This document shows, in pieces, positions 10,472-51,437 of a stretch of DNA of 64,000 nt. The position numbers and the translations under genes were made by a program. Source of the stretch: a virus; IMG/VR virus record IMGVR_UViG_3300050821_002957, positions 271,192 to 335,191 of that record. The stretch is one strand, 5' to 3'. Position 1 is the first letter of the stretch; every line of letters begins with the position of its first letter. The notes beneath the pieces are model-generated. The model was not told the DNA's origin. It saw nothing but the letters and a program-made list of their open reading frames with translations, and did not search any database.

Positions 10472-11722
10472 CTAGAGACGCCCGGAACGGATCAGTTCGA
10501 GGGCCTGTTCTTTCGATTTGATGTGACCGGCAAGCTGCCCATTCTCGGCGGCGTCCAGGATTCGTTTGAAATCTGGTCCTGGCTTCATTCCAAGTGCCTT
10601 CAGATCATCCCCATTGACAAATTTTGCCGGATTCAAGTCTTCGGCCTTCATGTTGGCAAACATTTTTGACAACATCTGGAAAGCAGCGATATGGACGTGC
10701 TTGTCCTGAGCCTCTGTACGGCATCCATAGAGCTTCAAGGCGTCGGGGAACAGCTTCTCACGCATCAGGCGTTTCAACACGTCCAGCGTCGTTCCAGCCG
10801 TCACAGAACCGATTCTGGACTGAAGGTCGATGATGCCGGTAATCTGCTTGATCGTGTCGTTAAAAAACTTCAGACGTTTACCAATTTTTTCTGCGCTCCC
10901 TGAAGGCAACATGTACAACGCACCAGCCAAACCCAATGCTGGATTGATGTTGGTGCCGATGAACGAAAGTGTTGCCATCATCTGAGCGTAATCATACGGA
11001 GTCATGTGGGCAACTTCCGGCAGAACATGCTCTAAGATGCCGGTGTTGTTCATTCCCTTGATTGTCTTGTGAGCGTCATGACCCATTGCCTTGGTCAATT
11101 CCTCTGTTATGCGCTCTACGTCCATTTTCGCAATGTTCGGAGCGTGCGCCTGCATTGCCGCCAGTGTCTCTGGGTGGATCTCAAATCCGAGCTTCGCCTG
11201 AAAACGATGTGCCCGAAGCATCCGAAGATGATCCTGTGTAAAACGGTCGTTCGGATTGCCGACACATTTGATGAGGCCGTTTTTTGCATCGGCCTTGCCA
11301 CCATGAAAATCGATGATGTCACCAGTGAACGGGTCCATGTACATTGCATTGACGGTGAAGTCACGCCGGTTGGAATCTTGTTGTTGATCACGAGTGTATT
11401 CGACATCATCTGGACGCCGACCATCAGTGTACTTTCCATCTTTGCGGAATGTGGCAATGTCGATACCGTGGCAGACAACGACACCAAATGATTTTCCTAC
11501 GACACTTGTTCCTGGGAAAAGTTTGAGAACTTCTTCAGGTGTGGCGTCAGTTGCTACGTCAAAATCTTTTGGCTTGTGGCCGGTCAAAAAATCACGAACA
11601 CAACCGCCAGCGAGATAGCCGACAAAGCCGTGTCTGCGAAGCGTAGTGATTACGTCTTTGGCGTCGTCAAGCGTGCCATAGGTGGACTCCCGAAGGAGGG
11701 CGAATTGTGTAAATGAGAGCAC
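10472..11722 (-). CDS. cca: tRNA nucleotidyltransferase (CCA-adding enzyme)
   Basis: The pol-beta head motif of the CCA/poly(A) polymerase family is present (GYLAGGCVRDFLTGHKPKDFDVATDATPEEV). Length is 416 aa. Confidence 0.8.
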   Translation of the reverse strand: MLSFTQFALLRESTYGTLDDAKDVITTLRRHGFVGYLAGGCVRDFLTGHKPKDFDVATDATPEEVLKLFPGTSVVGKSFGVVVCHGIDIATFRKDGKYTDGRRPDDVEYTRDQQQDSNRRDFTVNAMYMDPFTGDIIDFHGGKADAKNGLIKCVGNPNDRFTQDHLRMLRAHRFQAKLGFEIHPETLAAMQAHAPNIAKMDVERITEELTKAMGHDAHKTIKGMNNTGILEHVLPEVAHMTPYDYAQMMATLSFIGTNINPALGLAGALYMLPSGSAEKIGKRLKFFNDTIKQITGIIDLQSRIGSVTAGTTLDVLKRLMREKLFPDALKLYGCRTEAQDKHVHIAAFQMLSKMFANMKAEDLNPAKFVNGDDLKALGMKPGPDFKRILDAAENGQLAGHIKSKEQALELIRSGRL

Positions 11723-19090: not shown

Positions 19091-19629
19091 AAACGTCTCG
19101 GACACGCTGGCGGCTTCGCACAATCACCGGGTCCACCATTGTCCTTGGTCACTTTTTTGTTGGGAACTTTCTTCGGCTTTTTGACCGGCGACAATTGATG
19201 TGCATCGAAGTATTGAACGTCAGTCAAAATGCCTTCATGCAGTTTTGATGATTGCAGACCGACTCGCTGTGACGACGTAAAAAATTTGGACAATGAAATC
19301 GCAACACCTTCAAAATCTGAAATGCTGTCTTTGTACGTGTCGCCGAGTACGATCATATCCGGCTCTTCTTCATATGAAATCACTGCGGCCCCAGGTTGTT
19401 CTTGGAGAAGCTGTTCGTCAATGTAGAATCCGTCCATCGGCCCACCGTCAGCCTTGAGACCCGGAGGCTGAATTGCCACTCGGACGCACGCATACAGGAA
19501 AGTTGTGCGAGAGACAGCGACACCTTTAAGTCCTGAAATGGGATCTTTGTATGTTCTGCCGAGCGTTGCTACTTCTGTCGCTGCGGTCTTCAAAACGTTT
19601 TCACGATCAATTGGTTTGGAGTTTGCCAT
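19087..19629 (-). CDS. hypothetical protein with a duplicated module
   Basis: The segments YKDPISGLKGVAVSRTTF and YKDSISDFEGVAISLSKF are repeated, and the C-terminal tail is basic. Confidence 0.35.
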   Translation of the reverse strand: MANSKPIDRENVLKTAATEVATLGRTYKDPISGLKGVAVSRTTFLYACVRVAIQPPGLKADGGPMDGFYIDEQLLQEQPGAAVISYEEEPDMIVLGDTYKDSISDFEGVAISLSKFFTSSQRVGLQSSKLHEGILTDVQYFDAHQLSPVKKPKKVPNKKVTKDNGGPGDCAKPPACPRRF

Positions 19630-19674
19630 GTGTCGAGAGTAACATGATGGCTATAGGTGTGTCAATAATTTTAA

Positions 19675-19762
19675 TGGCTGGAGGAGCAGGACTCGAACCT
19701 GCATATGAGCTTTCGCTACGACACATTAACAGTGTGCTGCCTTACCGTTAGGCGACCCTCCA
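19675..19762 (-). tRNA. tRNA with a GTT (Asn) anticodon loop but a long, type-II-like variable arm; CCA encoded
   Basis: Hand fold: acceptor TGGAGGG/TCCTCCA, D-arm GCCT-AACGGTA-AGGC, anticodon loop CTGTTAA, an 18-nt variable region with an AGC-GAAA-GCT hairpin, T-arm GCAGG-TTCGAGT-CCTGC, then G and CCA. Confidence 0.45.
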
Positions 19763-19783
19763 ATATAAATGGATGTATGGCAA

Positions 19784-20217
19784 ATTCACAGAAAGTAAAA
19801 GAATGGCGCAAAAGAACCAAACAACGAATGATTGATGCAATGGGTGGATCGTGTGTAGTCTGTGGCTACACTCGTTGTTCAGCCTCATTAGGATTTCATC
19901 ATCTCGATCCGAGCAAGAAACATTTTGGTTTCGGAGGTCTTCGTGCCAACCCAAAATCTTGGGAGAAGATCAGCGAAGAACTACGAAAATGCGTTCTGAT
20001 TTGCAATCGTTGTCACGGAGAAGTACATGATGGTATAACCATCATTCCCATTAATGCAAAACGGTACGACGAAAGTTATGCTCAGAAATTTGGAAGAAGA
20101 AAAATGGCTCCGGGGACAGGACTCGAACCTGTAACATCCGCTTTAACAGAGCGGCGCTCTACCATTGAGCTACCCCGGAATGAGGTTGCTTCTTTGGTTA
20201 GGGTCACGCCGTTTTAA
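19784..20217 (+). CDS. HNH homing endonuclease
   Basis: Motifs CVVCGY...HHLDP...CNRCHGEVHDG are present. The gene lies between two tRNA genes and its 3' end overlaps the antisense tRNA at 20105-20179. Confidence 0.65.
20105..20179 (-). tRNA. tRNA-Asn (anticodon GTT), CCA encoded
   Basis: Hand fold: acceptor TCCGGGG/CCCCGGA, D-arm GCTC-AATGGTA-GAGC, anticodon arm CCGCT-CTGTTAA-AGCGG, T-arm ACAGG-TTCGAGT-CCTGT, discriminator G, CCA. Confidence 0.65.
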
Positions 20218-20260
20218 AGCGTGACCTACGTATTGTAGGTTGTGTAAGTCATCACAATTC

Positions 20261-20268
20261 TATTTATA
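20261..20268 (-). promoter_or_regulatory. TATAAATA late-promoter-like motif within a conserved 28-mer
   Basis: The 28-mer GTCATCACAATTCTATTTATACCACGGT recurs at 22351-22378. Both copies lie upstream of minus-strand tRNA genes. Confidence 0.35.
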
Positions 20269-20520
20269 CCACGGTGTTTTGAAACTGTCAACCTTTTATT
20301 TTACATTGACTCCGATCATTCGTCATACCGATCCATGAATTCTCTAACGTCATCAATACGAATTACAAACAAAATGATGAACAGAGGACCGCCGATGCAA
20401 AATAACACTCTGGCAGTTTGCTCCATGTCCATTATCATCTCAAAGAACCCCGCAAGAAAAAGCAAAATGAATGCCAGCCGCCAGCAATTCTTCCAGTTGA
20501 TCTTCACATAATCGAACATG

Positions 20521-21456
20521 TTACACCACCAAATCTTTGGGCAAGCGTTCAGTCCGTGCAATCTCTTCTGCGGTCGGTTTGATCACATTGCCGACGATTC
20601 CACCGAAGATTGCTCCGACCGTATCTGTGTCGCCACCGACCTCAATGAAGCTGTTGATGCAGGATGCGAACGAAAGACCTTTTTCCAAAGCCTGATGTGC
20701 CTGCCATAATGCAAAAGGAACTGTATCGACTGCCGTTACTTCTTTGCCGTTTCCAACCTTGCCAATTATTCCCCAATTGGTTTCGTTAAATGCACCCTCA
20801 CTGGCGACCCATTCGATGCGATCACGAAGTTCCCCTGATGGTGTGTATTTGATGATGTTTAACCAGAAGTCTTCCTCAGGTCTTCCATAAGTTACGTTTG
20901 CTGCGGCTATGGCGACCGCTATCGAACCGGCAATAGCATCGACGTGATAATGGGTCACTTCGGCAGATAGACGTGCTTCTTGCGCTACAAGGCCATAGTC
21001 AGGTCCAAAGTGTGCGCCAATGACAGCATCACGCATTGCCGATCCGTTGCCTTTTGAGCCGATGCCCGGTCCCCACCAATTCTTGCTATGCTCAAGCCAA
21101 TTGTCGGAGTCATAGCTATAGGTCGTCAACAAACCACGAGTGCCACGCCCATAACCACGCTGAGGATCAACATGAAAATTACGAGCTAATTCCTGAGCGA
21201 GTTCGAGTTGATTGATCGTATTGAATCGGTACAAAGTTCTAACGACACCAATACCGACATGTGTGTCGTCTGTCCAGGGATAGAGAATGTCAATTTTTGT
21301 GATCCCTCGTTCAGTGGCGACATTCCCAGCCTTGTAATATTCAGCCGGAAGAATCTTCATCTGATTTTCGCCTGCTGCATCGCCTACCGACAAGGCAAGA
21401 AGCGAAAGATAAGTTTCTTTCTTTTTGTACTGCATCGGAGCAAGACAGGGTGTCAT
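20521..21456 (-). CDS. ADP-ribosylglycohydrolase (ARH/DraG family)
   Basis: Several ARH motifs are present: LSVGDAAGE, PWTDDTHVG, GNGSAMR and GGDTDTVGAIFGGIVG. Confidence 0.8.
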   Translation of the reverse strand: MTPCLAPMQYKKKETYLSLLALSVGDAAGENQMKILPAEYYKAGNVATERGITKIDILYPWTDDTHVGIGVVRTLYRFNTINQLELAQELARNFHVDPQRGYGRGTRGLLTTYSYDSDNWLEHSKNWWGPGIGSKGNGSAMRDAVIGAHFGPDYGLVAQEARLSAEVTHYHVDAIAGSIAVAIAAANVTYGRPEEDFWLNIIKYTPSGELRDRIEWVASEGAFNETNWGIIGKVGNGKEVTAVDTVPFALWQAHQALEKGLSFASCINSFIEVGGDTDTVGAIFGGIVGNVIKPTAEEIARTERLPKDLVV

Positions 21457-21463
21457 ATTTCAC

Positions 21464-21676
21464 CTACTTGGTCGGTTTGTGCCAACCATATGCATGTTGA
21501 GCGGTCTTTGGCTCATATCCTAGAACGAGGTTACAGTTGGCAATACATTCGTCAAGATGACCGTCGCCTTTGTGAGTTGGATCTTGCAAAAATTGAAGTG
21601 CATGACGAATTGCTTGGCGTGCAGATCGAGCTTCGTTTTGCAGACGTTGAATTTGTTCTTCTATAGTTTCTACCAT
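21464..21676 (-). CDS. small hypothetical protein
   Basis: 70-aa ORF. Confidence 0.3.
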   Translation of the reverse strand: MVETIEEQIQRLQNEARSARQAIRHALQFLQDPTHKGDGHLDECIANCNLVLGYEPKTAQHAYGWHKPTK

Positions 21677-21999
21677 GTCTTAGTGTTTGTCCTCCACCAC
21701 CCAAACAGATAGCATACCACGGCGTAGATAATTGTCCATTCACCAGCAGTGAGAAAGAATGTGCCGCATCCTATCGTAGGAGTATCGAATGACAAGTTTG
21801 CAAAGAAGGCTTTTCCAAGACAAACAGCGAGACCGCCAAAATAAACAGCGGCAAAGAAGAGTTCACTTGGTCGAGGTACGGTGATATTGGGCCACTTCAT
21901 ATCCACAATGTTCGCACCGATCACCAGGGAAGTCAAGTTTTGCGCCTTGATGTAGATGAGCTTCTTGATTTGGATTGTCGGGCGTGCAGATAGTTTCAA
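21670..21999 (-). CDS. small membrane protein
   Basis: Hydrophobic helices in 109 aa. Confidence 0.3.
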   Translation of the reverse strand: MKLSARPTIQIKKLIYIKAQNLTSLVIGANIVDMKWPNITVPRPSELFFAAVYFGGLAVCLGKAFFANLSFDTPTIGCGTFFLTAGEWTIIYAVVCYLFGWWRTNTKTW

Positions 22000-22101
22000 T
22001 GCCGGTAAACTTTGTGTTTGGATCGAAACTGAAATTTGGATCTAATTTGTAAATCATAGCAAGAAGTATATAGCACTTCTAAGCCAATGAAATTAAGGTT
22101 T

Positions 22102-22175
22102 TGGCAGGAGTGGTAGGAGTTGAACCCACGCTAAAGGTTTTGGAGGCCCTTGTGCTACCGTTACACCACACTCCT
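22102..22175 (-). tRNA. tRNA-Trp (anticodon CCA)
   Basis: Hand fold: acceptor AGGAGTG/CACTCCT, D-arm GTGT-AACGGTA-GCAC, anticodon loop CTCCAAA, T-arm GTGGG-TTCAACT-CCTAC, G and CCA. Confidence 0.6.
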
Positions 22176-22191
22176 GTGATGAGGAAGATTA

Positions 22192-22267
22192 TGGCCGCTG
22201 GTTCCAGTTACGCTCTGGACTCTTCTGTTCTTCAGACAGACGCTTTCACTAGATTAGCTTACCAGCG
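22192..22267 (-). tRNA. tRNA-Phe-like (anticodon loop CTGAAGA) with a non-canonical T-loop
   Basis: Acceptor CGCTGGT/ACCAGCG, then G and CCA. The anticodon arm is TCTGT-CTGAAGA-ACAGA. The T-arm is TCCAG-AGCGTAA-CTGGA and lacks the TTC motif. Confidence 0.45.
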
Positions 22268-22288
22268 GTGTTGTGCTTTGAGAGAGGC

Positions 22289-22327
22289 GCAACGACTGCT
22301 GGTTTCAACAGCAGTCGTTGCGCCCCG
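22289..22327. other. perfect 16-bp inverted repeat (hairpin with a 7-nt loop)
   Basis: It reads GGCGCAACGACTGCTG-gtttcaa-CAGCAGTCGTTGCGCC. It lies between the conserved TATAAATA 28-mer and the tRNA-Phe-like gene. Confidence 0.7.
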
Positions 22328-22369
22328 GTGGTAAATCGCCAATATGTAAAAGTGCGTGTCATCGTAATT

Positions 22370-22377
22370 CTATTTAT
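22370..22377 (-). promoter_or_regulatory. TATAAATA late-promoter-like motif (second copy of the conserved 28-mer)
   Basis: GTCATCGTAATTCTATTTATACCACGAT lies upstream of the tRNA-Phe-like and tRNA-Trp genes. Confidence 0.35.
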
Positions 22378-22553
22378 ACCACGATCATTGCTGTCTGTCA
22401 ACAATGAAATTCTGTGTCGTGAACAAATGGTTCCTCGGATGGGAGCGGTATCATAGGCAGTGATAATCCCACCTGATTCCCCGGCTCACGACAAAATAAC
22501 AAGGCCACTCGGAAGTAGCCAAGATCCCTTGGTACACATGGTAACAGGGTCTA

Positions 22554-22793
22554 CTATTCGTGAATGATTTCGCCTATCACTCGTTCTGGCATTAGCTTCT
22601 CAGGCGGGACACTTCCATTCATAAGGTCAACCATGCGCTGTGCTTGAGCTAGAGTGTGAAAGGTTCCATACGGTGTGACATGTGCTCCACCGTCGCCAGA
22701 ACCTACTTCAACCAAATCATACTTCGTTTCCGTCTTCGGCCAAATCTCGTACCTAATTTTCTGTTCGGTCGATGACTTGTTGACGAATTCCAT
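22554..22793 (-). CDS. small hypothetical protein
   Basis: 79-aa ORF. Confidence 0.3.
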   Translation of the reverse strand: MEFVNKSSTEQKIRYEIWPKTETKYDLVEVGSGDGGAHVTPYGTFHTLAQAQRMVDLMNGSVPPEKLMPERVIGEIIHE

Positions 22794-23735
22794 AAATGTG
22801 TGTCGGTGTTAAGGCACACCGAGCAGGCCGCAAGATTTTGTTACTGATCAATACCTGCTAAGAACCAGGATGTTTAAGAACTTATCCTTGAGAAAGCTCC
22901 GTTGTAGGCGACACGGCTTCCCTGAGAGTCAGAGTTACTTCAGCTACTCCTGATGGTATGGTGACTCAGCTACCCCGACTTTTTAGTGATCGGCTCCATT
23001 CCGGTATTCGATTCGGCAACGACAGATTCCGACTCTGCAACGTTCTGCTTCTTTTCGATGAGAAGCAAAAATCATAAAAACTCAAAATGACCAGAGGACC
23101 CTCAGCAGTGAGCGCAGATCCCACGTTCGCATACAAGCGTCAATGACAAGTTTTATCCAACGAGCCATTGTCTTGTACGTTGGCTCACCGTCGAGTGCGC
23201 TATCCAGTTCGACACACTCACCTGCGGTTCTAATGACTTTCGTCTCCCGCTGGCCCTATCATCGCCTCACACTTCCGTGTGTTTCAACATCCTGGTCATC
23301 TCAAGGGCGACAGCCTTGCGGCCACGACACCCCACCAGCTTTTTTACTGTGTACTGATCACAGGGAGAGCTAGAACGACTTTCGCCGCCCCACACCTACC
23401 GCCACTGGTCGAGACTTCTACATGCGACCAGCCATGTCGCTAAAAGGGGCACTACGAGTAGATGCCCTCCACCACGTTGTTCTTTTACGTCCAACAACGA
23501 AACGACTTAGACCCATAACTCTGACCGGAAATCAGAACTATGATCCACACTCCCCGGTGGAAGCCGGGAAGACTTTGAATGTGAACTAATAATTGACAAG
23601 GGATTATAGCCCCGAAGGACCATTTCACCATTTGAAAGATAACCCTCATCTTCCGGCTCACATCACGAAATACGGCTGCTTGTCCTACCATTAGACGACC
23701 GGATCTGCCGACGCTTTACGCCATGAGAGCAGATT

Positions 23736-24060
23736 GGACTCCGACCGGGACTCGAACCCGGATTTCTCAGCTAGACGAATGACGGAGCATAGTGCGCTCT
23801 ACGTCGGAATTGGTGGATACACATGGGAATTGAACCCATAACCTTCTCGGTGCAAGCGAGTTGCTCTCCCAATTGAGCTAGTGACCCATAACTTTGTACC
23901 TCGAACAAATAAGTATCAGAGGGCTTGTCATTAGGAAAGATAACCCTCTAAATCCGGCTCGAAGCACTACAAAACTTTTGGTGGATCGCCAGGGATTTGA
24001 ACCCTGCTGTTATCCTCGGTGCAAGCGAGGCAAACACCCCAAGCATTTCCGCAACCCACA
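23736..24060 (-). pseudogene. three degenerate tRNA-like elements (tRNA pseudogenes or fragments)
   Basis: One element has a T-arm CCGGG-TTCGAGT-CCCGG with the D-arm GAGC/GCTC but an unfoldable anticodon region. A second has an Ala-like loop CTTGCAC with an acceptor of only 5 of 7 pairs. A third has a clean 3' half (anticodon arm, T-arm, GCGATCC-A-CCA) with no matching 5' acceptor strand. Confidence 0.35.
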
Positions 24061-24278
24061 TTTAAATAGCACGAACAAATAGCGGTAGAAGACTGATAGG
24101 AGACTGCATTTAACGCACCCTCGGATTGGATACCGATCAGATACGCTTCAAACTCCCCTCCTCAAAGTTACGGGCGTCTTTTACTACACGTACAACGAAC
24201 TGCTTTGTGCCCACCAAATACTGCCGGTGAACTTTGTCATGGTTAGGTAACCTTCCAACCAGCGGCTCGTGCTATGTC

Positions 24279-24340
24279 GAAACAGAACGAAACAGAACGA
24301 AACAGAACGAAACAGTGCTCAACGATGCGAAACAGTGCGT
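24279..24340. repeat. 10-bp tandem repeat (CGAAACAGAA)x3 followed by two CGAAACAGTG units
   Basis: Directly visible as cgaaacagaacgaaacagaacgaaacagaacgaaacagtgctcaacgatgcgaaacagtgcg. Confidence 0.8.
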
Positions 24341-24421
24341 TAGGTCAAAGATCGTATTCTTTATCTATACACGCTACAGTTTGCTTTCAATAGCGCCTTT
24401 GACTCTTTCAGTCTAACATCC

Positions 24422-24691
24422 TTAGTATGGGATGTCAAGTGCCACGAACATAATAATTTCATCTTCGTCTTTTTTGCGACGAGCAGCAGCTTCTTTCTCA
24501 GTCAACACCAGAGGAGACGGATTGCCTTCGACTTTGATATTCACTGATAAACCTTGCTGGAGCCATCCAGATACTTCATCGGGCGGCGTCTCGACAAATG
24601 CCTGATCACACGCCTTCTGAATTTCGACATTGCGTATTGCAGCAAGCGGTTTGCCGGATGGCGTCATGATGTCTACGTTACAAAGAAGCAT
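24422..24691 (-). CDS. hypothetical protein
   Basis: 89-aa ORF. Confidence 0.3.
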   Translation of the reverse strand: MLLCNVDIMTPSGKPLAAIRNVEIQKACDQAFVETPPDEVSGWLQQGLSVNIKVEGNPSPLVLTEKEAAARRKKDEDEIIMFVALDIPY

Positions 24692-24693
24692 GT

Positions 24694-25023
24694 TTATCTA
24701 CCAACTGCTACGGCTGAAATTCCGATAACACTTTCAATATTGTACAACAGACGAGCGGCTTCTGACAATTCTGAGCCGGTGCGATCCAGTGTAGCATGGA
24801 CGCCGGTCGGATCAGAATCAGCTTTTGAGTCATCGTCTTCTCCGGTGTATTGAAGAACATCTAACACCGTTTTTAAGCGACGAGCCAACATCCTAGCCAA
24901 TTGCAAATTTGCATCCGAAGAAGATTGAATTGTCGTTGGTTCGTGGTTCTTTTCTGCTGGACCGTCAACAACTAATCCAAACTTCTCTAATAAAACTTTG
25001 TTTCCTTTCTTTCCTGTATTCAT
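24694..25023 (-). CDS. hypothetical protein
   Basis: ORF trimmed to the internal Met (MNTGKKGNK) so that it does not overlap tRNA-Ile. Confidence 0.3.
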   Translation of the reverse strand: MNTGKKGNKVLLEKFGLVVDGPAEKNHEPTTIQSSSDANLQLARMLARRLKTVLDVLQYTGEDDDSKADSDPTGVHATLDRTGSELSEAARLLYNIESVIGISAVAVGR

Positions 25024-25029
25024 AATTTT

Positions 25030-25105
25030 TGGTTGGCCCAGATGGAATCGAACCATCAACCTCAGAATTATCAGTTCTGCGCTCTACCAATTGAGCTATG
25101 GGCCA
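25030..25105 (-). tRNA. tRNA-Ile (anticodon GAT), CCA encoded
   Basis: Hand fold: acceptor TGGCCCA/TGGGCCA, D-arm GCTC-AATTGGTA-GAGC, anticodon arm CAGAA-CTGATAA-TTCTG, T-arm GATGG-TTCGATT-CCATC, discriminator A, CCA. Confidence 0.7.
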
Positions 25106-25190
25106 ACATACTCAGAAGTAGTTATACTAGCGGCGAATCATTAGTGGAGGCCCAATAATCCGCCGCCAGTTTTACAGAATCAACCAAAAA

Positions 25191-26984
25191 CTACTCTTCG
25201 GTCTCTTCTGCGATCCCAGCACTTGAACCACGAATAAAATCCGTAACCAATGCTGGAACATTCGAGTCGAACCCAACGATGTCCAAAGAATACGGGTCCT
25301 TCGGATCTGCGATGGTAAATTGCGTAGAAACCATTCCCATCACGATCAGGCGCACATCATCCTGCCCACGATGCTTACGATACTGCTTGAGAGCCTGCGA
25401 CGGTTGCATTTGTCCAGCCCAAGTCTCATTATCCGTGATCACCATGAAAGCGTCTGCGTCGATGCCAGCCTTTTGAGCGTGAAGCATCGGTGCAGCACAA
25501 TCGGTTCCACCAGCCGACATGCGAGAGGTCTTTGCCAACGCAGTCTTCAGAGTGTCCTTTGCGGTGATGCCAATTTCCTGCATTCCCGTAGAAAATGCAT
25601 AGATAGCGTAATTCGGTTCCGTGCGAGCCACAACCATCGCCATTGCTGCGCCTGCTTGTGCTGCCGTGATTCCGGTGCCTTGGATGATGCTGGACGCCCA
25701 CGACATAGAACCAGAAACGTCCATGCCAATGTACGTAGCCTTACCAGTCGGAATTGCGTTTGCGAATGCCAAGTAGAACGTGTTCTCTAAAGCGTCCACA
25801 ATGGTCGGTACAACGGTCCAGGTCGCATCGCTGCGCTGACCGTGGCCTTGGCCGTAGGTGCCTTGTGCCAACAATACCTGGAGCGGGTGAATCTTGCTCT
25901 TCTTGACGTAGGCTTCATCGTTCAAACGAGACACGACGAGCTTCGATGCTGCCGACAGCGGCTTCAAGAGACCAATCTTCGACATGGTTCCAAGATTACG
26001 AACCATTGCAGTTACCGGCATCTTCTGAAGCAGAGCTTCCCAGACTTCCGGTTGCGTCTTAAACTGCGTCGGAATCATTTCGTGAGTCAATCCACCGTCG
26101 ATGATGCACTTTACGATAGTGCTCGTATCCGTCGCCTTCTTTGCGGTTTCATAGGCGGTGATCAACTTCGGTGCGTTCGATCCGGTCAACAAATCATAAG
26201 CGTTCTGATAGCGAGCACGCTGATTCTGAATTTCCGCAGAAGTCAGATCAGTCGTGCGATGGCTGTTGCCCTGCCACTTCTTGACAGAACGAGTCCAGTT
26301 CTGAGCAGCTTCGTTCAAGGCATCGAGACCACCGAAACGACCCCAAGCCAGCAAAGCACTCTTCATCGGATCAGTCGCCTTGACGTGTGCGAGGCTGACG
26401 AGATCACGAGTGGACCAGCCATCACGCTGTTGATACTTCGCCAACTGATAAGCCAGCGAATCTTCCGTGCGTTCGGTGTACCAGTTGCCGATTGCAGTCT
26501 TTACACCACGACCGTATCCACGCATGGAATCGAGGTACTCGTTGAAGTGGAACATGTGAGTACCGATACGTGCAACCTTGCTCAATTGCGACAGAGCATA
26601 AGCAGCAGTTTCAGCCGAACCAAAATTCGGTGTTGCGGCAACTGCCAGGGCAAACAATGCCGGATCGTTCTTCGGAGCACGGCCTGCTTGCGAAATGTTG
26701 ACGATCATATCGACCGTGCGCTTTCCATCCAACTGCAAGCACGCACGAACGTTCGCTGCGTTGTCTACAGTCATCTTCTTGGCAGATGCATAGTACGTCG
26801 GCGCATCGCTACCGAGAATCAAAAATCGTTCGAGCATCTGGAAGGGAGTGATGGTGAAGGTGTATCCACCAGCGTTGTTCTGCTTCATCTCTGCTTCCCG
26901 GCCCGGAATTGCCTGCGACTGTGATGTCTTCTTGCCGCTTAATACCGTTGCGTAATTGCTCTTTGCTGATCCTGCCTTTGCCAT
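25191..26984 (-). CDS. rsr: Ro60/Rsr orthologue (TROVE domain plus C-terminal vWA domain)
   Basis: The TROVE-like N-region (GGYTFTITPFQMLERFLILGSDAPTYY) is followed by the vWA MIDAS motif YIGMDVSGSM. A GGAGA SD sits 7 nt upstream of the ATG at 26984. The longer ORF start in the track is probably not used. Confidence 0.75.
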   Translation of the reverse strand: MAKAGSAKSNYATVLSGKKTSQSQAIPGREAEMKQNNAGGYTFTITPFQMLERFLILGSDAPTYYASAKKMTVDNAANVRACLQLDGKRTVDMIVNISQAGRAPKNDPALFALAVAATPNFGSAETAAYALSQLSKVARIGTHMFHFNEYLDSMRGYGRGVKTAIGNWYTERTEDSLAYQLAKYQQRDGWSTRDLVSLAHVKATDPMKSALLAWGRFGGLDALNEAAQNWTRSVKKWQGNSHRTTDLTSAEIQNQRARYQNAYDLLTGSNAPKLITAYETAKKATDTSTIVKCIIDGGLTHEMIPTQFKTQPEVWEALLQKMPVTAMVRNLGTMSKIGLLKPLSAASKLVVSRLNDEAYVKKSKIHPLQVLLAQGTYGQGHGQRSDATWTVVPTIVDALENTFYLAFANAIPTGKATYIGMDVSGSMSWASSIIQGTGITAAQAGAAMAMVVARTEPNYAIYAFSTGMQEIGITAKDTLKTALAKTSRMSAGGTDCAAPMLHAQKAGIDADAFMVITDNETWAGQMQPSQALKQYRKHRGQDDVRLIVMGMVSTQFTIADPKDPYSLDIVGFDSNVPALVTDFIRGSSAGIAEETEE

Positions 26985-27059
26985 ATCATTATCTCCTATG
27001 ATACCTAATTTTTTCGACTTCACCAGAATAACACATGCCTGATTGTTGTCAAGCATGTA

Positions 27060-37824: not shown

Positions 37825-38898
37825 TTAGCGTTGCAAGTGACGTTGATTGACTATTGCACGGTACGGAAATTCTTTATTGATTCCCAACCAGTTGCACCAT
37901 GCCTCGAAAGAACCAGCATTGTGGGTATCGAGTGCAATGAGTCCGTCTTGCGGTGCTCTCGGATCGAATAGAAGCTGACGCCCGACACGAGCCATATCCG
38001 GCACATTGTCAGAGTAAGCCTTCCAGTATTCAGGACACCAGTCGAGTGCATCACTTACAACAGATGGTACACCTTCGGCAATTCCATCAGCAGTGACCAT
38101 ATTGAACGATTCGGTGTAACTGCCCTGAATCAACAGGTGCATCTTTCTGACGACATCCCTAAACTGCGGCCATGTTGCCCATCCAAGTTCTTTCAGTGTG
38201 AAACCAGGAATGCCCTGAGTCATCGCACGAACAGAATTCAAAATTGTGTTTCCGCCGCCTTCGGTCCTTCCACCACTGACCCAAAATTCGGTATCAACTT
38301 TGAGTTCTTCGTGAAGTTCTAGTGCTGCACCGGCTGCGCTCATCAAGTTCTTTTGTGGACGAGTTGCACCAAATGCACCGATCTTCAGAACGCCACCGCC
38401 ATAGACAGGCTTGTTCGGTGACACAGTATAGTCGAGATAGTACATGTTCGGTAGGTAGGTGCAGGGAGCTTGATACGCCTGACGGACCCACAGAATAAAC
38501 TTGGAAGAATTTCCTGCGATGTTAAAGTTCAACGAACCCAATTCCAGGTCGATGTACTCACGCATCAATTTTACGCCATTTGTGTCGGCCTGTAAGAATC
38601 CGACATTGCTGTGACAATTTACAGCAAACTGAACATTGTGATACTTATAGGTAATCGCCTGTAACTCTCTCGTAGGAATCCAGGGCGCAGCGATTTCGAC
38701 GTGCGTCACTGTAGGATTCTTGTCAAGAAATGCATCAAGGGCTGCGGAGTTCAAGATTGGGAGCACAGTGCATTTGATTCCGTGCTTGTTTAAAATCTTG
38801 GCGATGTTGAGGGCTGCTACACCAAGCCCTATGTGGGAAATTCCCGCAAAGGCCGCAAAGTTTTTGTAGCAGAGAACTAGATGAACATTAGGTTGCAT
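37825..38898 (-). CDS. hypothetical protein, possibly a glycosyltransferase
   Basis: 357-aa ORF near the sugar-metabolism theme. No firm motif was found, so the call is speculative. Confidence 0.25.
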   Translation of the reverse strand: MQPNVHLVLCYKNFAAFAGISHIGLGVAALNIAKILNKHGIKCTVLPILNSAALDAFLDKNPTVTHVEIAAPWIPTRELQAITYKYHNVQFAVNCHSNVGFLQADTNGVKLMREYIDLELGSLNFNIAGNSSKFILWVRQAYQAPCTYLPNMYYLDYTVSPNKPVYGGGVLKIGAFGATRPQKNLMSAAGAALELHEELKVDTEFWVSGGRTEGGGNTILNSVRAMTQGIPGFTLKELGWATWPQFRDVVRKMHLLIQGSYTESFNMVTADGIAEGVPSVVSDALDWCPEYWKAYSDNVPDMARVGRQLLFDPRAPQDGLIALDTHNAGSFEAWCNWLGINKEFPYRAIVNQRHLQR

Positions 38899-39255: not shown

Positions 39256-39557
39256 TATTCCTCGTCGTTAATATCTAGCCAATCGGGAGCTTCCCAGGTT
39301 CGGTGAATAACTCTGACGTAGATTACACCTTCTTCTTCGTCAAGATTCCATTCAAGATCATCGCCAACTTCTATGTTCAATTCACGAACTAATCCATCTG
39401 GCAGTGTCATCATTCCGTTCGGTTGTATGACACAGGCATATGACCTATTACCAAATCCAGAGTTCACCCAGACACCTAAAATGGGTGGTTCATCATTATC
39501 TTCAGTCGGCTCTTCGTCAAAGTCTTCCGGTTCTAGCTCTGCGTAATCTTCAGCCAT
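39255..39557 (-). CDS. AbrB/SpoVT (MazE-like) swapped-hairpin domain protein with an acidic N-terminus
   Basis: It contains MMTLPDGLVRELNIEVGDDLEW. Confidence 0.35.
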   Translation of the reverse strand: MAEDYAELEPEDFDEEPTEDNDEPPILGVWVNSGFGNRSYACVIQPNGMMTLPDGLVRELNIEVGDDLEWNLDEEEGVIYVRVIHRTWEAPDWLDINDEE

Positions 39558-40681
39558 TTTCTTCCTACCCGAATCACTGACATTTCTGGCAACGGTTCTT
39601 TGAGTCTTGGATCGATAACTACACTACCATTTACATTTACGGCTCCGCTCTTCACCAGACGACTGCCCTCTGAGACCGAAGATGCCAAACCCATCAGCAC
39701 CAAGACTCGATCCAGGCGTGTATTGACCGAATGAAAAACCGGAATTCTTACAACTGGAATATCGACCGGCGCTTCACGATCTGAAAATCTCTTTGTCCAT
39801 TCAATTTCAGCGGTGTCTGCTTTTGGTTCGTCATGTAACCAATGAACAATTCGCCATGCCAAATATTTCTTAGATTGAAATGGTTGAGGATGCCAGCCAC
39901 ATTTATTTGGAAACAGAACCTCTTGCCATTGGCGCATTACATCATCAGCAATCGACATAACTTTGCTGAACATTTCAAATGGTTCATCCAGCAAACCAAT
40001 GTGATTACCGAACGACTTGGACATCTTTCGACCGTCCGTACCAAACAACAAAGGAACCGTCGCAATAACCTGAGGTTTCTCACCACGATCATGCATGTAC
40101 ATCCGGCCCATCAGCATGTTGTAAAATTGATCGTTGCCGCCAAGTTCAATATCTACACCTTCTCTGAAAGAGTCATATGCCTGAAGCATGGGGTATAACA
40201 TCTCATGCATAAAGACCGGAGTGTTTGTTACCTTGCGTTCTTTAAAATCGTCACGGCCACCGATTTGACTGAGGGTGAAATGGGACATGAGACGAATTAC
40301 ATCTTGCATCTTCATCTCGTCAAACCATTCGGCATTCTTTTTGACGACGGTTTTGGTTCGATCCAAAATTTTGAAAGCCTGTGTCATATAGCTCCAGGCG
40401 TTCGTATTGATTTCATCGTCAGAAAGCGCAGGCCGAAGCTGATTGCGCCCGGTCGGATCACCAATCGATGCTGTGGTGTTGCCGACGATCATCACAATGG
40501 TGTGCCCAGCATCCTGAAATTCACGCATCTTTTTCAACAGCACAGCATGACCAAGATGTAGGTCTGGTGCTGTGGGATCGAATCCGGCTTTCACACGTAA
40601 CGGATGACCTGACGCAATAAGAGCATCAAACTCCTTTTCGTCGAGGAGTTGCGTAAACCCGGATTTGAGTGATTGTTGCAC
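39533..40681 (-). CDS. tyrS: tyrosyl-tRNA synthetase
   Basis: It has the class I HIGH motif in a TyrRS context (GFDPTAPDLHLGH), the KMSKS motif and a C-terminal S4-like domain (LVKSGAVNVNG). Confidence 0.85.
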   Translation of the reverse strand: MQQSLKSGFTQLLDEKEFDALIASGHPLRVKAGFDPTAPDLHLGHAVLLKKMREFQDAGHTIVMIVGNTTASIGDPTGRNQLRPALSDDEINTNAWSYMTQAFKILDRTKTVVKKNAEWFDEMKMQDVIRLMSHFTLSQIGGRDDFKERKVTNTPVFMHEMLYPMLQAYDSFREGVDIELGGNDQFYNMLMGRMYMHDRGEKPQVIATVPLLFGTDGRKMSKSFGNHIGLLDEPFEMFSKVMSIADDVMRQWQEVLFPNKCGWHPQPFQSKKYLAWRIVHWLHDEPKADTAEIEWTKRFSDREAPVDIPVVRIPVFHSVNTRLDRVLVLMGLASSVSEGSRLVKSGAVNVNGSVVIDPRLKEPLPEMSVIRVGRKWLKITQS

Positions 40682-45725: not shown

Positions 45726-45755
45726 TCTAAATACTTTCTCAGGTGACCAACACAG

Positions 45756-46325
45756 ATGCCATTCAATCCCGTAATCGGAGCATACCAGAACCAGCCGACC
45801 GATATCAACTTTTTAAACACGCACCGCTTTCGTGTGATTCTGCGGCGCTGTCCTAATGTCGTCTATTGGGTTCAGGAATGCAACCTGCCTGCTATGGGAA
45901 TGGGCAACGCCGTACAGCCGACACCGTTCGTCGATGTGCCACGTCCCGGCGACAAGATTCGGTACGAAGATTTTACGATGTCGTTTCCAGTCGATCAGGA
46001 CATGATGAACTATCGAGAAATCGGAGATTGGATGGTCGGCCTTGGATTCCCTCAAGAGTTTGGACAGTATGCAGACCTCAAATCTTCTTATGATGGCATC
46101 TATTCGGATATCTGGCTCTTGATTTTAGATTCGGACAACAATGTGGCGCATACCGTCAAATTTATTGGTGCTTTCCCTACCTATCTTTCGCAAATTCAGT
46201 TTACGACGACGGTCTCCGATACGATCATTCCAATGGTCTCGGCAACATTCAAATATGCGTACTGGTCGCTGGACGATGTGAACGCTGGATCTTCGACCGT
46301 GACGCTTGGTGATTTCGTCCAGTAG
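45756..46325 (+). CDS. tail-tube-family protein (gp19/gp54-like)
   Basis: Length is 189 aa. The motif spacing F.V.I...C..LP...PV...GD...D.T resembles T4 gp19. The call is by recollection only. Confidence 0.3.
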   Translation: MPFNPVIGAYQNQPTDINFLNTHRFRVILRRCPNVVYWVQECNLPAMGMGNAVQPTPFVDVPRPGDKIRYEDFTMSFPVDQDMMNYREIGDWMVGLGFPQEFGQYADLKSSYDGIYSDIWLLILDSDNNVAHTVKFIGAFPTYLSQIQFTTTVSDTIIPMVSATFKYAYWSLDDVNAGSSTVTLGDFVQ

Positions 46326-50768: not shown

Positions 50769-51437
50769 ATGACAGATACCAAAGAACTAGAAATTACGCC
50801 ACCCAAAAAGGCTACGACTCACTACGTTGACAACAAGAAATTATTTGCTGCACTAGTCGAATGGCAGAAGGATTTAAAGCGAGCGCACCGGAAGAAAGAA
50901 CCGAAGCCGCAACTTCCCGAATACGTCGCCGAGTGCATGATGAAGATGGCGAATCGACTTTCTCAGAAGGCCGGATTCGTGAACTATACGTATCGAGAAG
51001 ACATGGTAGGCGATGCCCTCGAATCATGTCTACGTTATATTCACAATTTCAATCCTGCAAAAAGTAACAACGCCTTTGCTTACATTACGCAAATTATTCA
51101 TAATGCATTTATTAGGAGAATCCAGAAAGAACAGAAGCAGCTTTACGTCAAAATGCGTATTGTAGACGATGCTGACTTCGTAGGTTCGTATGAAAGGCAG
51201 GAAGGAGACTCGACACAGTACAACAACTCTTATGTGACTTATCTACAGGAAAATAAGGGCGACGTGATTTCCAAATTTGAAAGTTGGAAAGAGTCGAAGA
51301 AGACCAAGGCAAATGCAAAGAAGAAAGAGGCAAAGCTGCTGGCTGGATTGTTTGTCGAAGAAGAGCCAGATGCAGCGGTTGTCGTGACAGTTACACCGAA
51401 AAAGAAAAAAGCGAAGGTAGCAAAGGCAAAGAAATGA
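50769..51437 (+). CDS. 55: late-transcription sigma factor gp55
   Basis: It is alignable to T4 gp55: YVDNKKLFAALVEWQ, LHNFNP and AFAYITQIIHNAFIRRIQKEQK. Confidence 0.8.
   Translation: MTDTKELEITPPKKATTHYVDNKKLFAALVEWQKDLKRAHRKKEPKPQLPEYVAECMMKMANRLSQKAGFVNYTYREDMVGDALESCLRYIHNFNPAKSNNAFAYITQIIHNAFIRRIQKEQKQLYVKMRIVDDADFVGSYERQEGDSTQYNNSYVTYLQENKGDVISKFESWKESKKTKANAKKKEAKLLAGLFVEEEPDAAVVVTVTPKKKKAKVAKAKK

Follow-up and report, generated by a model that had tools for sequence, protein, structure and literature searches.

We analysed 64,000 nucleotides of viral DNA (positions 271,192 to 335,191 of IMG/VR record IMGVR_UViG_3300050821_002957; this whole stretch is called the window below) and found on its minus strand a short group of genes built around a non-canonical tRNA-Phe(GAA) gene of 73 nt at 22195-22267, which is recognised by the Rfam model RF00005, by a profile of its own family and by the covariation of that family. 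The 3' CCA, read directly from the DNA, is genomically encoded at 22192-22194, and a tRNA-Trp(CCA) gene (22102-22175, minus strand) follows 16 nt downstream of it. A long hairpin within a conserved leader and a sigma-70-type promoter precede the tRNA-Phe gene.

Read along the minus strand, 22195-22267 gives CGCUGGU AA GCUAAUCUAGUGAAAGC G UCUGU CUGAAGA ACAGA AGAG UCCAG AGCGUAA CUGGA ACCAGCG G, then CCA. The acceptor stem comprises 7 bp (CGCUGGU/ACCAGCG) with C1-G72 and the discriminator G73, the anticodon loop is CUGAAGA, the variable loop has 4 nt and the T arm is UCCAG-AGCGUAA-CUGGA; the stems of 7, 5 and 5 bp are all perfect. A8 and A9 lead into a D arm, GCUAAUC-UAGU-GAAAGC, with an extended stem and a 4-nt loop. 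RF00005 matches end to end (model positions 1-71) with 39.7 bits, above its gathering score of 29, and an initial annotation, which had rightly called a tRNA-Phe-type gene, had described its acceptor stem, its T arm, the anticodon loop, the discriminator G and the CCA correctly. An alternative acceptor register, CCGCUGG/CCAGCGG, was rejected, as it leaves no CCA and as columns 7-66 covary in the family.

The gene departs from the canonical elongator core by A8, A18, A54, G55 and U58 and by a D loop without GG, and it keeps G19, C56 and G53-C61. The T54-Psi55-C56 motif had been described as lacking, which is correct for positions 54 and 55, and position 58 deviates as well, whereas C56 is present; A8 in place of U8 and the missing GG go beyond that earlier description. 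ARAGORN called seven other tRNAs in the window and did not call the gene at 22195-22267, and every other tRNA of the window has the canonical UUC T loop. No second tRNA-Phe candidate was found within the 64-kb window.

Relatives of this gene were collected with two scans. The first, of viral contigs, used the pattern CTGAAGA-N13/14-GAGCGTAAC, in which the T loop is fixed and the D loop free, and found 108 viral loci, with about 25 chance matches and 82 perfect cloverleaves that differ in their stems and share a near-identical D arm. The second used only the D-arm pattern AAGCTAAYCTRGTGRAAGC, with the T loop free, and gave at least 119 viral loci, plus 96 loci in a species-representative genome collection, 80 of them true members, most of which lie on metagenome-assembled contigs with up to 30 tRNAs in 8 kb. 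Pooled, both scans yielded 192 distinct 73-nt sequences among the matches listed, 188 with the anticodon GAA, and of 83 family members that came from the first scan, 60 carry an encoded CCA. The window copy fits the family definition (A8 A9; GCUAAYC-URGU-GRAAGC with 15-22 and 16-21 pairs; GAA; a 4-nt variable loop; G19-C56), and an nhmmer profile of 187 members, built without the window copy, matched the window only at this site (E = 9.5e-17, 56.6 bits). A blastn search with the family consensus gave no match in plasmids and 5,426 E. coli genomes.

Several members lie unannotated in deposited phage genomes. In Pseudomonas phage Boevelstad, a member with UGGU and AUCGUAA ends a 12-tRNA cluster, and no tRNA-Phe is annotated at 66-74 kb; in the Ralstonia jumbo phage RsoM2USA (L401, 1489-1564), a member with a covarying lower D stem lies under an opposite-strand 'hypothetical protein' CDS; and Pectobacterium phage DU_PP_V (L115, MF979564, about 38580-38660) carries an unannotated tRNA-Phe, the DU_PP_V and RsoM2USA genes having A54-U58 T loops or the family D arm. 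The Boevelstad and RsoM2USA members are both in the G18/U55 state. Further members occur in the huge-phage assemblies LR745206 and LR756502. Whether ARAGORN calls a member differs with its loops: it called 23 of 23 members with UGGU and a UUCGAAA T loop, which look like ordinary tRNAs, and 4 of 103 with AGCGUAA.

Two variants were observed alongside these members. C33 replaces the near-universal U33 in 16 of the 80 members from arrays on metagenome-assembled genome (MAG) contigs (loops CCGAAAA or CCGAAGA; for example L214, L224, L241, L252 and L260, from Alphaproteobacteria and Xanthobacteraceae MAG contigs), usually together with C54. In L254, a Thermoplasmatota MAG contig, the anticodon UUU sits on the family scaffold.

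The pairing scheme of the family is borne out by covariation. Mutual information over the 192 sequences ranked the acceptor, anticodon-stem and T-stem pairs first, followed by columns 18-55, 15-22, 22-47, 15-47, 54-58, 27-45 (canonical 26-44), 33-39 (canonical 32-38) and 16-21. In a set of 89 members that mutually differ at 8 or more positions, 96.1% of the cells were standard pairs, compared with 65.2% after shuffling and 32.5-42.2% with the 3' partners slid, and the covariation score was 0.786, compared with 0.173 and 0.09-0.15, respectively; changes on both sides occurred in 20 of the 25 pairs. The lower part of the family D arm consists of G10-C, C11-G and U12-A, then an invariant A.A apposition and a bulged A14, and the upper part adds two more Watson-Crick pairs (U-A exchanging with C-G, and C-G with U-A) closed by the tetraloop U-R18-G19-U. 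The final two bases of the variable loop covary with these extra D-stem pairs (U-A with A, C-G with G), which we read as the signature of base triples. Variation is absent or almost absent at G19-C56, G53-C61 and U20; at A8, A9, A13, A14 and in the lower D stem, the constancy is owed in part to the search and selection patterns.

The altered elbow follows a strict rule. Among the recovered members in the matches listed, position 18 and position 55 occur in two states only, G18/U55 (n=95) and A18/G55 (n=93), with 0 exceptions, and this covariation does not arise by construction, the partner position having been free in each scan. The 54-58 pair is looser (A-U 85, C-A 32, U-A 28, A-A 23, G-G 11), and the window gene combines A18/G55 with A54-U58. 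With the elbow columns excluded, the nearest relative of 30 of the 93 G55 sequences is of the U55 type, which indicates that the 18-55 switch arose many times; L193 and L120, for instance, are in opposite states and differ at 3 other positions. Because column 18 covaries perfectly with column 55, the T loop of the window gene is best read as one half of a compensated tertiary contact and not as damage.

The genomic setting indicates what these genes do. Neighbouring tRNAs within 600 nt lie on the same strand in 1015 of 1017 cases. Where ARAGORN called 15 or more tRNAs at a viral locus (67 loci), tRNAs for each other amino acid occur in 60-96% of the loci, and a tRNA-Phe from outside the family in 3%; at 34 genome loci with at least 15 tRNAs the latter figure is 0%. 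Since the Phe slot of these arrays is otherwise empty, the family appears to be their tRNA-Phe, and its members form what we consider a widespread tRNA-Phe lineage, present in large-phage tRNA clusters and in further mobile tRNA arrays. As for EF-Tu, its contacts on a tRNA are with the acceptor and T stems and not with the T-loop bases. The suggestion of the initial annotation that the gene product may not bind ribosomes or EF-Tu normally is thus not supported: the T-loop change is half of a covarying pair, G19-C56 and G53-C61 are kept, and the family supplies the only tRNA-Phe of large phage and mobile-element arrays. Array tRNAs of Anabaena, including a tRNA-Phe(GAA) that may or may not belong to our family, are aminoacylated in vivo (PMC8421152). 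We conclude that the element is probably a functional phage tRNA-Phe(GAA) gene and a member of this array lineage.

Several points weigh against this conclusion. Because the search patterns were derived from the window element, the D arm and the T loop are constant partly by design, as is the anticodon loop in the first scan, and the empty Phe slot was judged by ARAGORN, to which further aberrant tRNA-Phe genes could be invisible. With about 400 kb, the genome is far larger than the 64-kb window, and another tRNA-Phe may sit elsewhere. The window copy has C1-G72 and G73, compared with mostly G1-C72 and A73 in the family (A73 in 170 of 188); because A73 contributes to phenylalanyl-tRNA synthetase (PheRS) identity in several systems, it may be charged less well by PheRS. 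Finally, three related loci (L393, L396 and L397), which were reached through protein homologs and then the contigs encoding them, do not all rely on the family. L393, the closest relative examined at the DNA level, carries a family member with the D loop AAGA and the T loop AGCGUUA and, directly upstream of it, a second tRNA-Phe with an A53.G61 mismatch, and only other tRNA-Phe types are present at the locus in L396 (two genes) and L397 (one canonical gene). Because these relatives differ in their tRNA-Phe content, the tRNA-Phe genes of this locus appear to be turning over, and a family member, where there is one, does not always stand alone. The order Phe-then-Trp is kept in all three.

The second tRNA-Phe of L393 (5411-5485) and a gene of L396 (4618-4692) represent another odd tRNA-Phe lineage in related jumbo phages, with A53.G61 in place of G53-C61 and the T arm GUGGA-UUCGAGC-GCCAC.

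Upstream of the tRNA-Phe gene, the minus strand encodes a leader with a stem-loop at 22284-22326, in which 16 perfect bp (22286-22301/22309-22324; 18 bp as RNA) close the loop UUGAAAC; it is the longest and strongest local hairpin in the 64-kb window. The perfect 16-bp hairpin reported initially therefore exists, 3 nt away from the coordinates assigned to it (22286-22324 instead of 22289-22327). The single-stranded 5' part of the leader (22327-22366, minus strand; …GAUGACACGCACUUUUACAUAUUGGCGAUUUACCACC) is near-identical in L393 and partly kept in L397 and L396. The leader opens with a conserved segment, …UUUACCA(A/C)CGGGGCAUAAC, which forms the 5' arm of a long hairpin in the window phage and all three relatives.

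The hairpin could itself be functional, as an RNase III site, a 5'-end stabiliser or a small RNA freed by RNase P, and we hold this view tentatively, at somewhat less than even confidence. It is the strength of the perfect 18-bp duplex that speaks for such a role, together with the retention of the hairpin and of its 5' arm GGGGCAUAAC in three relatives in which the rest of the stem changes: in the window the stem is perfect over 18 bp, L393 has 9+7, L397 8+5 and L396 7+7 bp, and the 3' arms and loops differ. In L397, moreover, a stem and U-tract, taken by eye as an intrinsic terminator, parts the leader from tRNA-Phe, so that the L397 leader may be a separate small RNA. In the window, the hairpin was rejected as an intrinsic terminator: UCUCUCAAAGC follows it instead of a U-tract, and the terminator scan does not list it. 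These absences, a loop sequence that is not conserved, and a comparison of 4 related sequences, too few to quantify covariation, all count against a function of the hairpin, as does a permissive Rfam scan of 22180-22560, in which the leader gave only generic miRNA-hairpin matches and the adjacent Y-like RNA none.

The loop of the window hairpin (UUGAAAC, 22302-22308, minus strand) equals a heptamer of the tRNA-Phe anticodon loop, comprising U33 and GAA, for which we estimate a chance of about 1 in 1000. It is not conserved in the hairpins of the relatives and may be a coincidence.

The promoter of this unit (22373-22401, minus strand), recognised by its pattern and conserved in L393 and L397, is of the sigma-70 type, with the -35 element TTGACA at 22396-22401, a 17-bp spacer, TGG at 22379-22381 and the -10 element TATAAA at 22373-22378. 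It thus shares TTGACA, the 17-bp spacer, TGn and TATAAA with extended -10 sigma-70 promoters, the -35 matching at 6/6 and the -10 at 5/6 positions; the conserved final T of the -10 hexamer is missing, which weighs against the assignment. A standard promoter scan skipped this promoter and a second copy of it because it demands T at that position. The counterparts in the relatives read TTGACC-N18-TATAAATAGAAAC (L393) and TTGACA-N17-TATAAATAAAC (L397) and lie upstream of the Phe...Trp group, which follows directly in L393 and after the stem and U-tract in L397. From the position of the -10 element, transcription is predicted to start near 22365-22369, and tRNA-Trp is probably on the same transcript as tRNA-Phe.

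The second promoter copy (TTGACA, N17 with TGG, TATAAA; 20263-20291, minus strand, by pattern) stands upstream of tRNA-Asn (20105-20179), and an 8-bp leader hairpin, GGUCACGC…GCGUGACC (20202-20226, minus strand), lies between the two; the copy is predicted to drive both the hairpin and the tRNA-Asn gene. A 28-mer comprising the -10 element and the initially transcribed region (22358-22385, given on the plus strand, by sequence comparison) had been noted as recurring there, and two copies do exist. The second, however, lies at 20248-20275 and not 20245-20272, and it matches at 25 of 28 positions instead of exactly; the first runs past 22378, where the element had been taken to end. The exact core shared by the 28-mers has 17 nt (GTGGTATAAATAGAATT on the minus strand; 2 occurrences in the window, 0.15 expected), and the similarity of the two upstream regions reaches the shared TTGACA (45 nt, 78% identity). 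TTGACA-N16-18-TATAAW occurs 2 times in the window, at both copies, with 0.04 expected. There are 15 further minus-strand sites of the form TTGAC(A/C)-spacer-TGn-TAnnn(A/T), about 17 with both copies, and because of these similar sites host sigma-70 RNA polymerase appears to serve this gene block. The idea of a promoter or processing cassette for tRNAs therefore holds in part: the 28-mer belongs to a promoter for tRNA-Phe and tRNA-Trp with a copy before tRNA-Asn, and it is no special processing cassette, as the promoter is one of about 17 of its type on the minus strand.

Matches to TTGACA-N17-TATAAATAGAATT at 21 viral and 69 metagenome loci were considered as relatives of this arrangement and rejected as unrelated strong promoters. 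At nine loci (L304, L306, L307, L311, L318, L321, L324, L372 and L387) this pattern is followed by RNAs of about 70 nt that end in …GGACGCGGGGGCAGUACCCGCCGCCUCCACCA and have G at T-loop position 55; judged by eye against tmRNA 3' ends, these resemble a tmRNA/tRNA-like acceptor-T-arm minihelix.

The -10 regions of both copies contain the octamer TATAAATA (22371-22378 and 20261-20268), which is identical to the consensus of T4 late promoters, and one of the window genes codes for a homolog of the T4 gp55-type late sigma (50769-51437, plus strand; phrog_234 'late sigma transcription factor', E = 1.1e-53). The site could accordingly be a T4-type late promoter read by the phage gp55 sigma, instead of or beside host sigma-70, a reading that we regard as possible but rather doubtful. 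In its favour, the octamer is kept at 8/8 positions in both window copies and in L393 and L397 despite diverged flanks, the -10 lacks the final T expected by sigma-70, and two other sites in the window, 4972(+) and 7797(-), have the octamer without a -35 element. T4 late promoters need neither a -35 element nor TGn, however, and both copies carry a perfect TTGACA at exactly 17 bp plus TGn, features which gp55 does not use and which go far beyond chance. The 15 minus-strand siblings share this layout with a -10 that is not TATAAATA, and there are just 4 TATAAATA sites in 64 kb (0.88 expected). The single structural gene start examined, that of the tail tube, has CTAAATA instead of TATAAATA. Sigma-70 use of the promoter is therefore likely, and an additional late use, as in a dual early-late promoter, is possible in view of TATAAATA in the -10 region and of the gp55-type sigma gene in the window.

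The CTAAATA of the tail-tube gene lies at 45728-45734 (plus strand), 21 nt upstream of the start at 45756, and could be the late-promoter form of this phage.

For the tRNA-Phe gene, we thus propose the following course of events. Host sigma-70 RNA polymerase would start at the TTGACA-N17-TGG-TATAAA promoter, near 22365-22369, and the same promoter may also fire late in infection through the gp55-type sigma. The transcript would comprise a leader of about 100 nt, with the conserved 5' segment and the long hairpin, then tRNA-Phe and tRNA-Trp, and the tRNAs would be freed by RNase P and 3' trimming. PheRS would charge the tRNA-Phe through G34, A35, A36 and U20, and the charged tRNA would decode UUC and UUU during infection. 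The elbow of the family would hold the 18-55 contact in either of two interchangeable states, G18/U55 or A18/G55, with 54-58 free to vary.

The deviations of this tRNA may be adaptive and not the product of neutral drift, in that they let the phage tRNA escape host enzymes that read the T loop or the core, or make it independent of host modification. Such a role is compatible with a functional tRNA-Phe, and we judge it conceivable, though on the whole unlikely. The sites replaced include those of s4U8, m5U54 and Psi55 and, through G37 in the window copy and about 70% of members, of ms2i6A37. The nuclease CbCash cleaves the T loop at UUC, and single mutations of U54 or U55, both replaced here, abolish cleavage (PMC13462974); other phage tRNAs escape anticodon nucleases by loop mutations (PMC10264068). 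The same elbow is also found in other array isoacceptors, where 87 of 106 G55 tRNAs have AG and not GG in the D loop (GG in 2310 of 2610 U55 tRNAs). Other tRNAs have G55 in 5.2% of cases in arrays with a G55-type Phe and in 1.9% otherwise (odds ratio 2.9, with statistics that ignore relatedness). On the other hand, the other tRNAs of the window all have the UUC T loop, and a general T-loop nuclease would still disable translation; the two 18-55 states are about equally frequent, which fits near-neutral exchange; and we know of no nuclease or modification enzyme specific for the elbow of tRNA-Phe. Adaptation is no more likely than near-neutral exchange on a more rigid D-arm scaffold.

A18/G55 elbows were observed in array tRNAs for Met, Gln, Leu, Tyr, Cys and Ile (L003-L302), for example a T loop UGCGAAU with the D loop AGUAGUA, and about 15% of the ARAGORN-called array tRNAs are without U54U55. 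A broader and more speculative proposal, to which we give little credence at present, is that the arrays carry 'elbow-recoded' tRNAs (A18/G55, variable 54-58, A8 and often G37) that would be functional without host core modifications and invisible to UUC-T-loop nucleases such as Cash (CRISPR-associated Schlafen), the tRNA-Phe of the window being the most extreme and the family the commonest example. If this is true, the tRNA-Phe would sustain Phe decoding when host tRNAs are cut or under-modified.

It is improbable that the element is a tRNA-like RNA without a role in translation, such as a decoy for tRNA-targeting enzymes, a substrate of a non-ribosomal aminoacyl-transferase or a regulator, kept off the ribosome and EF-Tu by its altered loops. 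The near-universal U8, G18, T54 and Psi55 are indeed replaced, tRNAs outside translation have a precedent in the cell-wall tRNA-Gly species of staphylococci, whose T loops are altered, and the member in L393, standing beside another tRNA-Phe, could be accessory there. Yet the family is the only tRNA-Phe in arrays with tRNAs for at least 15 amino acids, and GAA, U20, G19-C56, G53-C61, the 7/5-bp acceptor/T geometry and CCA are all kept. Furthermore, ordinary-looking G18/U55 members (UUCGAAA) interconvert with the A18/G55 form in near-identical backgrounds, which argues that both forms are functionally equivalent. A decaying pseudogene, finally, as the missing ARAGORN call, the lowest Rfam score among the window tRNAs and a minimum-free-energy fold that is not a cloverleaf might suggest, is so improbable that we dismiss it, given that the 192 distinct homologs show compensatory changes in all stems and a perfect covariation of tertiary contacts, and that the window copy has perfect stems, an encoded CCA and a conserved promoter.

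The window encodes a Ro60/TROVE protein, a CCA-adding enzyme (10472-11722), TyrRS (39533-40681) and an ADP-ribosylglycohydrolase, as well as UvsW, UvsY and SbcCD-like proteins, tail tube and tail sheath. An identical copy of a window protein is found on contigs of up to 405 kb and homologs of 60-70% identity on contigs of 370-400 kb; we take the source to be a T4-related jumbo phage to which no deposited phage genome is closely related. A megablast search of 50,697 phage records with 19500-25500 gave no match, and related loci, sought via the neighbouring ADP-ribosylglycohydrolase, were found neither in viral contigs nor in metagenome contigs. Sinorhizobium phage Phosso, the best Ro60 match among cultured phages, was rejected as a relative, not being syntenic.

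Further unusual RNA genes surround the tRNA-Phe unit. Three Y-RNA-like genes at 22405-22481, about 23575-23665 and about 23896-23967 (all minus strand) lie downstream of the Ro60 gene (25191-27056, minus strand). They share a terminal stem (5' GUGAGCCGG…GGGUUAUC, 3' …UUUGUUCAC), a motif also present in L393 and L396; the -35 element of the Phe promoter follows a few nt after the end of one of them, and one gives a sub-threshold Rfam match to nematode stem-bulge (Y-like) RNAs (34.6 bits). Two aberrant tRNA-Ala(UGC)-like genes, 23815-23887 and 23979-24057 (minus strand), flank a Y-like RNA, one with two acceptor-stem mismatches; the other, of 79 nt, has an unusual D arm and was recognised by ARAGORN alone. 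Both may be tRNA-like modules acting together with the Y RNAs. A tRNA with the Asn anticodon GUU at 19675-19762 (minus strand) has a class-II-like variable arm of 17 nt, unusual for tRNA-Asn, and adjoins the normal tRNA-Asn. A plus-strand ORF of 170 aa (19705-20217) overlaps both tRNA-Asn genes; it has no Pfam match and, by eye, CxxC/HH motifs.

Compared with canonical tRNA-Phe(GAA) (RF00005; for example that of Salmonella phage 7-11, HM997019, 3053-3127), the window gene shares the 7/5/5-bp cloverleaf, GAA, CUGAAGA and the encoded CCA, as well as G10-C25, C11-G24, U12-A23, U20, G19-C56 and G53-C61. It differs by A8 for U8, by an extended D stem with a 4-nt loop and no D-loop GG, by A18/G55 for G18/Psi55, by A54-U58 for T54-A58, by A59 A60, and by a 4-nt variable loop and shifted base triples. 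A certain likeness to tRNA-Sec lies in the lengthened D stem, whose tetraloop offers G19 to C56, and in the absence of the usual U8-A14 and 15-48 contacts. tRNA-Sec has a 6-bp D stem and a 4-nt D loop. Its acceptor/T geometry is 8/5 or 9/4, compared with 7/5 in the family; its variable arm is long, compared with a loop of 4 nt; its anticodon is UCA and not GAA; and it is served by the dedicated factors SelA and SelB.

The family shares its tRNA-cluster setting with the L-arrays and phage tRNA clusters, which on phages and mobile elements form dense groups, with as many as about 30 same-strand tRNAs and often with homing endonucleases nearby (PMC8421152, PMC6409571, PMC4758250). The window gene, unlike these, belongs to a loose island, made up of tRNAs, Y-like RNAs and a Ro60 gene, and not to a dense array, and neither the D-arm and elbow architecture nor the 18-55 switch is described in those three papers. 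Our literature searches, whose coverage was incomplete, so that an earlier description is possible, found no account of this tRNA-Phe architecture, of an A18/G55 elbow or of a phage tRNA with a non-canonical T loop. Like the phage tRNAs that escape defence (PMC10264068; for Cash, PMC13462974), the family deviates at sites recognised by defence nucleases. Escape has so far been described for anticodon loops, in contrast to the T loop and elbow, for which no escape variant is given in PMC10264068 and PMC13462974, and the link to defence drawn here is hypothetical.

Taken together, the promoter, the conserved leader hairpin, tRNA-Phe and tRNA-Trp make up a probable transcription unit of this phage, set within an RNA island that also includes a Ro60 gene and Y-like RNAs. 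Genes of this family are missed by ARAGORN and are unannotated or under spurious CDSs in GenBank (Boevelstad, RsoM2USA, DU_PP_V), so that phage tRNA repertoires seem to be without tRNA-Phe when they may not be. The G18-Psi55 and T54-A58 contacts are among the most conserved tertiary contacts of tRNA, and the family offers natural and repeatedly used alternatives to them, a ready covariation series for structural biology. The bases replaced are those read by the known T-loop defence nuclease and by the core-modification enzymes of the host, which raises the testable hypothesis that an arms race may have shaped the elbow of these phage tRNAs.

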